Below are positions 8,221 to 15,152 of a stretch of DNA of 43,734 nucleotides, piece after piece. This stretch comes from Chitinophaga pinensis. GTDB lineage: Bacteria; Bacteroidota; Bacteroidia; NS11-12g; UBA955. The stretch is from assembly GCA_945863965.1 (NCBI GenBank), contig CAMBBZ010000003.1:1-43734 (forward strand). Direction: 5' to 3'. The translations under genes and the position numbers were made by a program. The stretch's first letter is position 1, and each line of letters starts with the position of its first letter. The notes under the pieces were generated by a model, which searched no databases, had not been told where the DNA came from, and worked only from the letters and a program-made list of their open reading frames with translations.

Positions 8221-9648
8221 TTAAAACTGCAAATAGTAAAAAGGCAAACTACCCAAACGATTAAATTGGTAAGCGAGTAGTATCGTAATTACCAGTAAAA
8301 AGGCGCTGAACCAATAAGAGCGGGAGGTAAACCAGGCGTGAATGCGCGGGTAAAAATGAGCCAAGCTAAAGTGACCTACAATCCCAATTATGGACATCCA
8401 AAATACACCAATATACAAATCATACCAATCTGGAAATAATGTCCAATCAAAGCCCTCACTCATTTTTTGGACCATAGAATTGGCTTCTTCTATACTTCTT
8501 GATTTAAAATAGATACCACTAAACACTAGGAATCCAAAGGTTAGTAAAATGGAAATAGGCCGGTATATAAAAGCAGGGATGGTATTTCTCCAAGTATTTC
8601 TCCAAGTGCTTGTATAAACATCCCAAATCATACACACGGCATGCATAAGGCCCCAAAGCCAATAATTAGGTGCTGTACCATGCCAAAAACCGCTTAGGGC
8701 AAACACCACAAATACGCTGATACTCGTACCCAAGCGTTTCCAACTGCGTAAGGAATAACTCAAAGGGAAATACACATACGAATTGAACCACTGAGAGAGC
8801 GTGATATGCCAACGCTTCCAATATTCTGTTACGTTTTGTGCAAAAAATGGGAAGTTGAAGTTTTGCGGAATTTGAAAACCTAACCACAATGCCAACCCAA
8901 TCGCAATATCGGTATACCCGCTGAAATCAAAATACAAGGCAAACGTTTGTAATACGCTCGCGATGAAAACCTCCATCGAGGTGAAAAACTCAGCACTTTC
9001 AAAAACACGGTCTACAAAATTGATGGATAAATAATTGCCTATTATGAACTTTTTAATGATTCCAGAGGCAATTAAGAAAGCACCCGCATTAAGTGCGGCA
9101 GAATCGGTGTACCACGTTTTACTTCGTAATTTTTGCAGAAAATCCGAAGCCCCGGCAATAGGCCCTGAAAGCATTAAAGGAAAAAAACTCGCATACGTCC
9201 AATAATGAAAAAGATTGGTTTCGGGCTCTTCGATGGTTTCGTAATAAACATCAAAAACATAGCTCATAGAGCGAAATGCATAAAATGAAACACCAATAAA
9301 ATAGAGGGGAATAGGAAAGTGTATGTCCGATTCCATATCGTTTAAATGCAGCCAATCGCTAAGATGTCGGAAGCCCAATATTAAGCCAACATTGAGGAGT
9401 ACGCTCATCCACATTAAGGCTTTTTTTCGCAAATCCTTGCTTTGGGCATGTATGCCTTTTGCTAGGGCAAAGTCTAAAGTTGAAGCCGCTAACAATAAAA
9501 TTACGGCATACTGTGTGAGCATCGTGAAAAATACCAAATTCCCAATAAGGAGAACTCCTATTTTCCACGAATTAAAGCGGGCAACACTTAGAAATACCAG
9601 ATATAAGGCAAACCAAAAGACGAAAAAAGCGGGAGTGTTGAACGCCAT
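8221..9648 (-). CDS. MBOAT family O-acyltransferase (AlgI/DltB/PatA type)
   Basis: Polytopic membrane protein with GVSFYAF, FFP...SGPI, YFDFSGYTDIA, YWKRWHITLSQW and catalytic His in SGFWHG. Ends in FYYLQF. Confidence 0.93.
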   Translation of the reverse strand: MAFNTPAFFVFWFALYLVFLSVARFNSWKIGVLLIGNLVFFTMLTQYAVILLLAASTLDFALAKGIHAQSKDLRKKALMWMSVLLNVGLILGFRHLSDWLHLNDMESDIHFPIPLYFIGVSFYAFRSMSYVFDVYYETIEEPETNLFHYWTYASFFPLMLSGPIAGASDFLQKLRSKTWYTDSAALNAGAFLIASGIIKKFIIGNYLSINFVDRVFESAEFFTSMEVFIASVLQTFALYFDFSGYTDIAIGLALWLGFQIPQNFNFPFFAQNVTEYWKRWHITLSQWFNSYVYFPLSYSLRSWKRLGTSISVFVVFALSGFWHGTAPNYWLWGLMHAVCMIWDVYTSTWRNTWRNTIPAFIYRPISILLTFGFLVFSGIYFKSRSIEEANSMVQKMSEGFDWTLFPDWYDLYIGVFWMSIIGIVGHFSLAHFYPRIHAWFTSRSYWFSAFLLVITILLAYQFNRLGSLPFYYLQF

Positions 9649-9651
9649 GTA

Positions 9652-13690: not shown

Positions 13691-13721
13691 AGGGGCTAAT
13701 TGTAATGGATGAAGCGATTTT

Positions 13722-15152
13722 TTAAAAATTTGCGTCGATAATTCCCTTTAAGGCTTTCTTATCCACCTTGCCATTGGCATTCAAGGGAAATGGGTGAACG
13801 GCATGAACCTCCTTGATATGCATGTAATCAGGAAGGTGTTCGTTTACCTGTGAAATGTCAAATGGGATTTTTTCGGTATCAAATACCAAATGAAGTTCCC
13901 AACTATTCATTGTCTCCACAGCTAAACAGCGGTTTAGTATTTCGGGAAGTATTTTGGTACCTGCGAATTCTATTTCGGATAATTCAATGCGGTACCCTTG
14001 GATTTTGATTTGGTCGTCGCTGCGGCCGTGGCAGAAATAATCGGGCTTATCAAAACTTCCAATATCGCCGCTCTTATAAAACCAAATTCCGTCTTTTTCA
14101 AAGAATTTGGAACGCTGTTCTTCATTGGCGTGTAAATACCCTTTGGTTGTTTGGTCGCCGCCCAAACACAATTCTTGGGTATCGTCTAATAAGAGAGAAA
14201 CCGTTTTCATAGGCTTCCCAATACAAACAATACCATTTTTATGTAAGCAATCTGTTAAATCGCGAGGCACCGTGTAACGGGTGCAGTAGATGGTGGCTTC
14301 GGTAGGACCGTATACGTTATCGATTTGCGTTTGAGGACATGCCTTAGCCCAAACGGCAACTTGGGAGATTTTCAAGGCTTCCCCACAAAATTGACTCACT
14401 TTTAAATGTGGCAATTCCAATTCATCTGCATAAGGTGCTAGCATTTCCACGGCCGAGGGTACCATCAAAGCGAAGCTAATATTTTCACTCTCCAAGGTGT
14501 CGTAAAGAGCCAAAGGCTTAACCAATTTTTGACTTGGAACGTAAAAAGAGGCTCCTAATAGTGTCGGAACTCCAAAACTCATTACCGATAGATCGAAGGT
14601 AAGTTCGAACATTTGCAGAAATTTGTCTTGGTCCGTTAAGTCGTATCCCAATTCCCAAAAGCCGTCAAAAAAGGCCTGTAAATTTCCAAAGGTAATCGGC
14701 ACCCCTTTGGGCTTACCCGTGGTTCCGGATGTGAACAAGATGTACGCATTATCCCTGTTTTCTGCCGTGATTAATTTCCACCGAAAGGAATTTACGGATT
14801 GCTTTGTAAGCAGTTCAATTTTTTTTATTTGGGGAAGCCCGATATTTTGGGAATCTAAAACCCTTTTTAGTCCGCTCGCATCTATGATATCCTGCAAGCG
14901 TTGGGTGGGATAATCGGGATTTAAGGGAACGTACGCTTTACCGCACATCCAACAAGCGATTAGGGCCGCATAGGTTTCGAAATCATTTCTTAAAACCACC
15001 CCAATTGAATCCTCACTGTGAGAAATAGAAAGTTGGTAGTCTTGAATATAATTGGAAAGGTCGCCGTAGGTAAAGGTTTTTTGCTCAATTACGCACCAGG
15101 TTTTCTCCGGATACGTGTGTATTTGATTGGCTATTAATTCGGGAAAACGCAT
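13722..15152 (-). CDS. Stand-alone amino acid adenylation enzyme (DltA-like)
   Basis: A-domain cores YILFTSGTTGKPKG, TFDLSVM, FCGE, NVYGPTE, YKSGD, GRSDDQIKIQGYRIELSEIE and NGKVDK. No fused C or T domain. Confidence 0.9.
   Translation of the reverse strand: MRFPELIANQIHTYPEKTWCVIEQKTFTYGDLSNYIQDYQLSISHSEDSIGVVLRNDFETYAALIACWMCGKAYVPLNPDYPTQRLQDIIDASGLKRVLDSQNIGLPQIKKIELLTKQSVNSFRWKLITAENRDNAYILFTSGTTGKPKGVPITFGNLQAFFDGFWELGYDLTDQDKFLQMFELTFDLSVMSFGVPTLLGASFYVPSQKLVKPLALYDTLESENISFALMVPSAVEMLAPYADELELPHLKVSQFCGEALKISQVAVWAKACPQTQIDNVYGPTEATIYCTRYTVPRDLTDCLHKNGIVCIGKPMKTVSLLLDDTQELCLGGDQTTKGYLHANEEQRSKFFEKDGIWFYKSGDIGSFDKPDYFCHGRSDDQIKIQGYRIELSEIEFAGTKILPEILNRCLAVETMNSWELHLVFDTEKIPFDISQVNEHLPDYMHIKEVHAVHPFPLNANGKVDKKALKGIIDANF

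Follow-up and report, generated by a model that had tools for sequence, protein, structure and literature searches.

Which acyl group does a bacterium export, and onto which polymer, when it combines an amino acid-loading enzyme and a carrier protein with a membrane acyltransferase and two SGNH proteins? The question is raised by an operon of six minus-strand open reading frames (ORFs), at positions 8221-15152 of a 43,734-nucleotide (nt) stretch of Bacteroidota DNA (contig CAMBBZ010000003.1; hereafter the window, at its full length). In gene order, they encode a DltA-like adenylation domain enzyme (A domain), a GNAT, an 82-amino acid (aa) carrier, two SGNH proteins (SGNH-1 and SGNH-2) and an MBOAT. 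Bacteroidota are diderms without teichoic acids.

The reading that we lean towards is a relay of MBOAT and SGNH proteins, fed by the carrier, that would attach a small amino acid to peptidoglycan as an ester; the amino acid is probably D-alanine and may be N-acetylated. The parts of this reading differ in strength: carrier-fed MBOAT-SGNH acylation of the envelope is highly probable, an amino acid as the acyl group is likely, peptidoglycan as the acceptor is a moderate preference, and N-acetylation by the GNAT is a tentative proposal, at slightly under even chances. Our argument draws on which genes are present, on their catalytic residues, on the Ape1 fold shared by the two SGNH proteins, on a shuttle motif fused to the MBOAT, and on the conserved linkage between the A domain, GNAT and carrier (the arm) and the two SGNH proteins and MBOAT (the trio).

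The export module and its acceptor

Pfam and NCBIfam scans agreed with every family named in the original prediction, which had been made from the sequence alone; its six co-oriented genes, in the order given above and with gaps of at most 31 nt, match the ORF coordinates exactly. The parts of the operon are as follows.

13722-15152, minus strand: A-domain gene, 476 aa; Pfam AMP-binding, 1e-51
13055-13690, minus strand: GNAT gene, 211 aa; Pfam GNAT families, 1e-7
12814-13062, minus strand: carrier gene, 82 aa; Pfam PP-binding, 4.8e-5
12946-12948, minus strand: codon of the phosphopantetheine serine, carrier Ser39
11364-12824, minus strand: SGNH-1 gene, 486 aa; weak Pfam Lipase_GDSL_2 match, 1e-5, below cut-off
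9652-11361, minus strand: SGNH-2 gene, 569 aa; Pfam Lipase_GDSL_2 and two LysM stretches, 2.7e-28
9892-10029 (limits approximate), minus strand: LysM domain 1 of SGNH-2, about residues 445-490
9655-9783, minus strand: LysM domain 2 of SGNH-2, residues 527-569; best Pfam LysM stretch
8221-9648, minus strand: MBOAT gene, 475 aa; Pfam MBOAT, 1e-18
8224-8241, minus strand: FxYxxF hexapeptide at the MBOAT C-terminus (F470-Y-Y472-L-Q-F475)

The genes are tightly packed: in gene order, 31 nt separate the first two, the next two junctions overlap by 8 nt (GNAT stop and carrier start) and 11 nt, and the last two have gaps of 2 and 3 nt.

The MBOAT is related to DltB, which provides both its only NCBIfam match (TIGR04091, 164 bits versus a cut-off of 375, over residues 3-379 of 475) and its sole matches in the PDB (8jem and 6bug, 3e-20). 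All 38 aligned orthologs share H281, H323, F470 and Y472. Past the DltB-like core, the protein continues for 96 aa, with hydrophobic segments at 411-430 and 444-462, and ends in the FxYxxF motif, as does every full-length MBOAT ortholog. The original prediction, which identified the MBOAT correctly, had overlooked this fused motif. FxYxxF is an acyl-shuttle motif, carried in the Dlt pathway by the microprotein DltX and fused in PatA-type MBOATs to the C-terminus on two extra helices; PatA acetylates the motif tyrosine and passes the group to PatB (PMC12148441, cited, like the other published work below, from the part of its text available to us). The terminal hexapeptide, the two extra hydrophobic segments and the catalytic His of the PatA type described in that text are all present here. 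The PatA type, however, uses acyl-CoA and no carrier, whereas here a carrier and a loader lie in the same operon, and a carrier is found in 30 of 33 related loci with enough flanking sequence. Since no other ORF of the operon, small ones included, ends in FxYxxF, we rejected a separate DltX. A second MBOAT (472 aa, 30% identical, ending in FVYFQF) lies elsewhere in the source genome (L109; contig C116, 778-3472), followed by a 431-aa ORF matching nothing in Pfam or NCBIfam; no carrier is visible on this 5.7-kb contig.

Sequences and predicted structures identify SGNH-1 and SGNH-2 as paralogs with the Ape1 fold, the one predicted to be membrane-anchored and the other to be secreted with two LysM domains. 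The same topology had been proposed originally, and the hydrophobic segments and Pfam LysM matches bear it out. SGNH-1 has a single hydrophobic segment (4-30), a modelled N-terminal helix (6-26), a low-confidence linker (50-86) and the catalytic residues Ser147 and His456, both invariant, with Asp454. SGNH-2 starts with a signal-like hydrophobic segment and has invariant Ser75, Asn288, Asp381 and His384 before its two C-terminal LysM domains; W472 and N473 of the first of these are invariant, and the LysM pairs 4uz2 and 8i2e were matched. The two proteins align with each other over 360 columns (hhalign probability 99.9%, E 3e-36), and the GDS(H/Q) and D..H blocks are invariant in their alignments.

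The models (predicted local distance difference test 86.4 for SGNH-1, built on 40 natural sequences, and 87.0 for SGNH-2, built on 49) place Ape1 of Neisseria meningitidis and Campylobacter jejuni far above all other structural matches of both proteins. With Foldseek, SGNH-1 retrieved Ape1 8gld at 4.7e-22 and 4k3u at 5e-19, the next match being at 2.5e-6, and SGNH-2 retrieved 4k3u at 9.3e-24 (TM 0.84), the next being at 7.9e-10; the SGNH-2 profile hit Ape1 at 3.6e-37 and 2.5e-23 among PDB sequences. In the VIA comparison, which was run for SGNH-1 alone, Ape1 structures scored Z 32.8, 30.0 and 29.8 (338 residues aligned for the top match, root-mean-square deviation 3.5), and generic SGNH enzymes and PatB scored Z 14-16. 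The SGNH blocks, the beta-sandwich inserted after block I and the similarity over both domains that characterize the Ape1 family were all found. Two other types of partner were rejected: tentatively, and for SGNH-1 only, a PatB-type protein, because SGNH-1 is no closer to PatB than to generic SGNH enzymes in VIA, and DltD, because neither protein matches PF04914 and both are Ape1-like. The PatA/PatB/Ape analogy drawn in the original prediction keeps its Ape component and probably loses its PatB component, both proteins being Ape1-like paralogs.

An Ape1-like pair followed by an MBOAT bears on the acceptor. SGNH-1, SGNH-2 and MBOAT stand in the same order as ape1b, ape1c and pat in the putative O-acetyl-peptidoglycan cluster of Bacteroides thetaiotaomicron, B. 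fragilis and Porphyromonas gingivalis (PMC1199599), a likeness of order and description rather than of sequence. Together with the Ape1 fold of both SGNH proteins, this order strengthens the link to peptidoglycan that had first been proposed. The same relay might instead serve another glycan or lipid of the periplasm or outer leaflet as acceptor, such as lipopolysaccharide core or O-antigen, an exopolysaccharide or the glycans of lipoproteins, with LysM merely tethering SGNH-2. MBOAT-SGNH pairs do acylate alginate, cellulose and secondary wall polysaccharides as well (PMC12148441), and LysM is a general binder of N-acetylglucosamine glycans, chitin-binding LysM proteins being among the SGNH-2 profile matches. 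We nevertheless consider another acceptor unlikely: over the whole two-domain architecture, Ape1 beats the carbohydrate esterases of other glycans by at least 14 orders of magnitude, the gene order is that of the putative Bacteroides cluster, and the ORF list of the window places no glycosyltransferase, flippase or polymerase gene beside the operon, the convergent gene downstream encoding an ElyC-like DUF218 protein.

The loading enzyme, the GNAT and the carrier

The A domain is most likely an amino acid adenylation enzyme with a DltA-like pocket, its sequence pointing to a small amino acid as substrate and favoring D-alanine. Among NCBIfam models, it scored 252 bits with AA-adenyl-dom, 238 with DltA NF003417 (cut-off 476) and 221 with TIGR01734 (cut-off 559.85), none of which reaches the cut-off. 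In the PDB, DltA 3e7w was matched at 2e-45; LgrA ranks first in this search only because two of its modules add up, the top single-stretch score being that of Bacillus subtilis DltA (158.5 bits). Over a 129-residue pocket stretch, DltA scored 50 bits in one stretch versus 38 for LgrA module 2. The ten-residue specificity code reads DLMLQCVIYK, its positions being placed by the core motifs and GrsA numbering. The pocket is formed by D187, L188, M191, C256, T284 and I288, with K462 in the last core motif.

In B. cereus DltA, Asp197, Thr297 and Val301 hold the amino group, a Leu, Met200 and Cys268/269 line the cavity for the methyl group, and the Cys selects the D enantiomer (PMC8972799, PMC4176424). 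Mapped by coordinate offsets (residues 177-295 of the window's enzyme versus DltA chain residues 187-308) rather than by residue-by-residue alignment, D187, L188, M191, C256 and T284 coincide with these published pocket residues, five of six positions being identical; the sixth, I288, falls on Val301. The DltA-like pocket supports the activation of a small amino acid that had been postulated from the window. Asp187, at the position that binds the alpha-amino group, is kept in 39 of 39 aligned orthologs. A homolog search returned 7480 relatives bearing automatic names only ('D-alanine--poly(phosphoribitol) ligase subunit 1' and 'non-ribosomal peptide synthetase component F' among them), with no characterized protein, and a TIGR01734 search of the source genome gave no control loci.

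In the carrier motif, SGWDSLTH, all 35 aligned orthologs keep W37, S39 and H42. Its Pfam PP-binding score is 24.0 (cut-off 20.8); in NCBIfam, its sole matches were to generic acyl carrier protein (ACP) models, all of them below cut-off, with no DltC model among them. A predicted MBOAT-carrier complex, run without controls, scored 0.21 versus a mark of 0.32 and carries no weight either way on binding. In the GNAT, the RGKG loop for the pyrophosphate of coenzyme A (CoA) is present, and R140, N169 and Y176 are invariant in an alignment of 30 orthologs. Its profile matched PaiA and polyamine and N-alpha acetyltransferases in the PDB, at best at 9e-8, and the protein Atlas returned generic GNAT clusters only.

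This combination leaves room for ordinary peptidoglycan O-acetylation, in which acetyl is what the carrier delivers. The GNAT-type loading domain of curacin synthase loads acetyl from acetyl-CoA onto a carrier thiol, and AcuA and Pat regulate acetyl-CoA synthetase by lysine acetylation; by analogy, the GNAT might load the carrier thiol while the A domain has a regulatory or proofreading role, or it might acetylate a lysine of the A domain. A GNAT profile like that of ordinary acetyl-CoA-dependent N-acetyltransferases is in keeping with such a use, as is the O-acetylation of Bacteroides peptidoglycan, measured at 27% and 69% (PMC1199599). We judge it improbable. The A domain is that of an amino acid adenylation enzyme, with its Asp kept throughout the orthologs and a DltA-like pocket; delivery of acetyl would not require it, yet it has been conserved and in some relatives even fused to the GNAT; and no AcuA model or structure is among the NCBIfam and PDB matches of the GNAT. 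An amino acid therefore remains the acyl group that we favor.

Conservation of the cluster and variety of its loaders

Within the genus, A-domain relatives of at least 44% identity occur in 20 of 24 genomes, as against 0 of 16 in the sister family, and 12 of 15 loci combine gatB with the full six-gene set in unchanged order. Beyond it, a pattern scan using one genome per species gave 503 SGNH-2 relatives, whose titles belong mostly to Bacteroidota lineages, with few others (Rhizobium, Agrobacterium). The best 79 loci were read and mapped with profile hidden Markov models of the six proteins, 14 of them being the same records as the same-genus loci. The complete six-gene set was present in 20 distant loci among these 79, with SGNH-2 at most 45% identical, under titles of metagenome-assembled genomes (MAGs) from Bacteroidales, Marinilabiliales, Lentimicrobiaceae, Bacteroidaceae, Marinifilum and Acetofilamentum. 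Several taxonomic orders retain the gene order at identities down to 32-45%, and three of these loci (L059, L068, L077) encode the A domain and the GNAT as a single polypeptide of 715-735 aa. The same order in the 12 same-genus and 20 distant loci argues that the arrangement is not due to chance. A lack of linkage between arm and trio in relatives had been named in advance as the outcome that would speak against the original prediction; these loci display that linkage.

The donor arm was then scored in 33 loci having an MBOAT beside SGNH-2 and at least 5.2 kb of sequence upstream and 3.6 kb downstream. The carrier lies beside the trio in 30 of them. Twenty-two have the A/GNAT/carrier arm, and in five the MBOAT is closely followed by another kind of AMP-binding enzyme, four of these with a second-type carrier; of the remainder, three have the carrier only, one has GNAT and carrier, and two have no arm (in L051, one of the two, Pfam-scanned flanking genes are unrelated). 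The downstream enzyme is acetate-CoA-ligase-like (NF003313, 615-651 bits versus a cut-off of 729), and none of the clusters that have it contains a GNAT. This arm fits a machinery that is fed from a carrier and normally handles acetyl, and the swap of arms in sister clusters is a point for the O-acetylation alternative discussed above; the lack of a GNAT in them, in turn, disfavors a general role of the GNAT in regulating an AMP-forming enzyme or loading the carrier. In an MBOAT tree (FastTree, midpoint root, supports unread), the amino acid arm occurs throughout and the acetate arm in one clade, which we take as a hint only.

An even sample of 300 Bacteroidota genomes at least 90% complete puts this cluster in a wider setting. 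The carrier profile was found in 24 genomes and the SGNH-1 profile in 53. Of the 17 carrier loci that were read, 14 have an MBOAT no more than 1 kb from the carrier, with differing loaders and gene orders, and 13 of these 14 MBOATs end in the shuttle motif. The loaders beside the carrier are DltA-like, other AMP-binding or FkbH-like enzymes, and partner proteins of about 310 aa give weak DltD, DUF1574 or GDSL matches. As the carrier family is tied to fused-motif MBOATs in many arrangements, that of the window appears to be a lineage-limited member of a wider set. That other Bacteroidota carrier-MBOAT cassettes have DltD/DUF1574-like rather than Ape1-like partners counts for an acceptor other than peptidoglycan, and so does the place of a 35.5%-identical A domain of Segatella copri within a polysaccharide locus.

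These surveys also bear on whether arm and trio work together at all. The A domain, GNAT and carrier might make a soluble or lipid-linked N-acyl amino acid unrelated to the SGNH and MBOAT proteins, their adjacency being a historical accident. Three same-genus genomes do keep the arm without an MBOAT, and stand-alone pairs of A domain and carrier without an MBOAT exist (L125, L126 and Segatella copri). We hold this to be very improbable, because the genes overlap by 8 and 11 nt, the six-gene order persists at 32-45% identity across several orders, 14 of 17 loci that were drawn independently and differ in gene order place the carrier family next to an MBOAT, and Pfam and NCBIfam scans revealed no condensation, thioesterase or reductase domain for product release. 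A relay joining arm and trio is the reading retained here.

Several loci met in these searches deserve description in their own right. Two (L111 and L112, with L113 added by gene order) contain an FkbH-like loader, the carrier, an MBOAT ending in FIYFQF and the protein of about 310 aa with weak DltD/DUF1574/GDSL matches; another (L116) has an FkbH-like loader and carrier without an MBOAT match. These loci may be a carrier-fed cassette for a glycerate-derived acyl group. In L118-L123 (families f30/f39), a divergent 570-aa AMP-binding enzyme accompanies the carrier and an MBOAT ending in FIYFQF, with an SGNH-1-like gene beside them in L118-L120, an arrangement seen by coordinates in 10 of the 300 genomes; several SGNH-1-like matches in loci of this type hold one in-frame stop. 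The Segatella copri DSM 18205 locus (L108; NZ_CP085933.1, 106816-126228) combines the DltA-like A domain with an ACP, an AAC(3)-family N-acetyltransferase and an alanine racemase, within a polysaccharide locus that also holds a flippase, a polymerase and phosphonate genes. The locus gives the impression of a pathway that decorates a sugar of a capsule or O-antigen with alanyl groups in the cytoplasm.

The surroundings of the operon in the window contain two further features next to its ends.

15156-16598, minus strand: gatB; NCBIfam GatB, 619 bits, above cut-off; context, not a functional part
8153-8172, minus strand: terminator-like hairpin with T-rich tail; consensus match only; 49 nt past the MBOAT stop

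The gatB gene, which encodes a tRNA-dependent amidotransferase subunit and which the original prediction left unmentioned while describing the content and spacing of the operon correctly, lies 3 nt upstream of the A-domain gene on the same strand in 15 of 15 same-genus loci, and is therefore probably co-transcribed with the envelope-modification operon; it was not seen adjoining the cluster in the distant loci. The hairpin falls between the operon and the convergent DUF218 gene; the region has no more sites of this kind than shuffled sequences do. A sigma-70 promoter scan gave fewer sites than shuffles, with a model that is unsuited to Bacteroidota. The DUF218 protein (7324-8121, plus strand) has a weak match to ElyC, an envelope biogenesis factor; its gene converges on that of the MBOAT and holds the same place in 6 of 15 same-genus loci. 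The window further contains tRNA-Lys(ttt) at 176-249, tRNA-Gly(gcc) at 17108-17181, within a 900-nt gap upstream of gatB, and a 561-aa ORF (17509-19194, minus strand) with a signal sequence and a C-terminal region that by eye resembles the formylglycine-generating-enzyme (sulfatase-modifying) domain. The source genome is 1.96 Mb in 178 contigs and 96% complete, and near-identical DNA occurs in lake and freshwater metagenomes, no RNA data set being listed among the matches.

The proposed relay and its relation to known systems

The relay that we propose has five steps. In the first, the A domain would adenylate a small amino acid, most likely D-alanine, and thioesterify it onto the phosphopantetheine of carrier Ser39, as suggested by family membership, the pocket and the invariant serine. 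In the second and weakest, the GNAT would probably N-acetylate the carrier-bound aminoacyl group with acetyl-CoA; its translation is coupled to that of the carrier, and some relatives have it fused to the A domain. Third, by analogy with DltB/DltX and PatA, the loaded carrier would dock on the cytoplasmic face of the MBOAT, and His323 would drive acyl transfer to Tyr472 on the periplasmic side. Ser147 of the membrane-anchored SGNH-1 would then take the group from the tyrosine, and in the fifth step the group would end on O-6 of N-acetylmuramic acid (MurNAc), either directly from SGNH-1 or through the LysM-bearing SGNH-2. Alternatively, SGNH-2 might be the matching esterase, removing the group during turnover.

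Several observations weigh against this relay. The source is a MAG of an uncultured lake bacterium, and what the relay transfers, what it transfers to and what the GNAT does are inferred from sequence. The pocket mapping depends on alignment offsets, residue-by-residue alignments having been obtained with LgrA only; at position 239 of the pocket, orthologs differ (M, V, S, A, C, W or F), and Ser replaces the enantiomer-selecting Cys in one clade. A domain, carrier and MBOAT all score below the NCBIfam cut-offs for DltA, ACP and DltB. As for the candidate transferase, SGNH-1 compares with PatB 8tlb, 7tlv and 7tjb at Z 14.1-14.8, the level of unrelated SGNH esterases, its Asp sits two residues before the His rather than three, and Ape1 itself is an esterase, not a transferase. 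In the 300-genome sample, the carrier lies within 5 kb of an SGNH-1-like gene in only 10 of 53 genomes and the exact arrangement of the window occurs in 0 of 24 carrier loci (17 read, 7 by coordinates only), so that the trio mostly exists without the arm.

The same-genus loci add to this list. Three of the 15 (L023 in genome G014, L024 in G015 and L025 in G007) are reduced to gatB, A domain, (GNAT,) carrier and SGNH-2, without an adjoining SGNH-1 or MBOAT. In the two whose SGNH-2 was aligned (G014 and G015), the catalytic Ser is replaced by Ile (GDIH or QDIH versus GDSH) and the Asp and His of block V are lost, and in the reduced loci the A domain and carrier stay open reading frames. Going by these three loci, the arm may serve some purpose by itself, or else the reduced clusters are decaying. 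In L024, a 1283-aa secreted repeat protein occupies the place of the MBOAT.

If the relay is real, peptidoglycan carries amino acid esters, a modification never described, and does so in a diderm; sensitivity to lysozyme and lytic transglycosylases, surface charge and the recognition of muropeptides would be affected. The sister clusters with an acetate-ligase-like loader provide a natural comparison that makes the idea directly testable, and cultured carriers of the cluster should exist, since the family spans several Bacteroidota orders and includes MAGs labelled Bacteroidaceae. A broader generalization, which we put forward as speculative, is that Bacteroidota possess a modular family of carrier-fed MBOATs with fused shuttles, in which interchangeable loaders (DltA-like with GNAT, acetate-ligase-like, other AMP-ligases, FkbH-like) set the acyl group exported, here forming an N-acetyl-D-alanyl or D-alanyl ester of MurNAc.

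With the Dlt system (DltA/DltC/DltB/DltX/DltD), the operon shares a stand-alone A enzyme with a DltA-like pocket, a small carrier, a DltB-related MBOAT, the FxYxxF tyrosine shuttle and an SGNH-fold enzyme as the last, here presumed, transferase. It differs in that the motif, found on the DltX microprotein in Dlt, is fused to the MBOAT on two extra helices, that two Ape1-like SGNH proteins replace DltD, and that a GNAT stands between A domain and carrier. All NCBIfam Dlt models are below cut-off here, and the features of a DltB equivalog, of DltX and of DltD were not found.

Alginate O-acetylation by AlgI/AlgJ/AlgF/AlgX uses an MBOAT and two SGNH-like periplasmic proteins, one anchored and one with a carbohydrate-binding module. 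The likeness of this layout to an MBOAT with an anchored and a glycan-binding SGNH protein suggests a two-step relay to a distant polymer; the alginate enzymes are, however, of another SGNH subfamily and motif order, work without a carrier or A enzyme, and act on a secreted polysaccharide. AlmEFG of Vibrio cholerae, also Gram-negative, likewise pairs a stand-alone A domain with a carrier to prepare a small amino acid for esterification to the envelope, and the A domain of the window matched PDB 4oxi, which we take to be AlmE, at 7e-42. AlmG is a lipid A acyltransferase of the cytoplasmic face, and the MBOAT, SGNH proteins, tyrosine shuttle and LysM domains of the window have no counterpart in AlmEFG.

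The closest arrangement of the trio is ape1b-ape1c-pat, with its two Ape1-type genes followed by an MBOAT. There, Ape1c is described as lacking the insert, whereas both SGNH proteins have it here, and a cation-efflux transporter lies upstream in Bacteroides; the available text of this 2005 paper by Weadge, Pfeffer and Clarke has no 'ligase' and uses 'carrier' for bactoprenol only (PMC1199599). PatA/PatB/Ape1 of Neisseria and Campylobacter share with the operon an MBOAT ending in FxYxxF and an Ape1-family SGNH protein with an inserted beta-sandwich, but take acetyl from acetyl-CoA with neither carrier nor adenylation enzyme (PMC12148441), and no PatB-type protein was found here by VIA, for SGNH-1 alone.

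In the literature within reach, subscription journals and supplements lying outside it, we found no carrier or adenylation enzyme joined to a Bacteroidota peptidoglycan O-acylation module, and the available part of a 2025 account describes the MBOAT/SGNH pathways other than Dlt as lacking a carrier protein (PMC12148441). This agrees with the view taken at the outset that no characterized system has this combination; the novelty lies in the full combination, the SGNH/SGNH/MBOAT trio having already been described as a putative cluster (PMC1199599). The division now in use opposes Dlt, with a carrier and a separate DltX, to all other systems, with acyl-CoA and a fused motif (PMC12148441), and it fails here because the operon and its relatives join a carrier with a fused motif. 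The operon fits neither the Dlt type nor the standard PatA/PatB/Ape1 type of cluster, and works like a hybrid of both.

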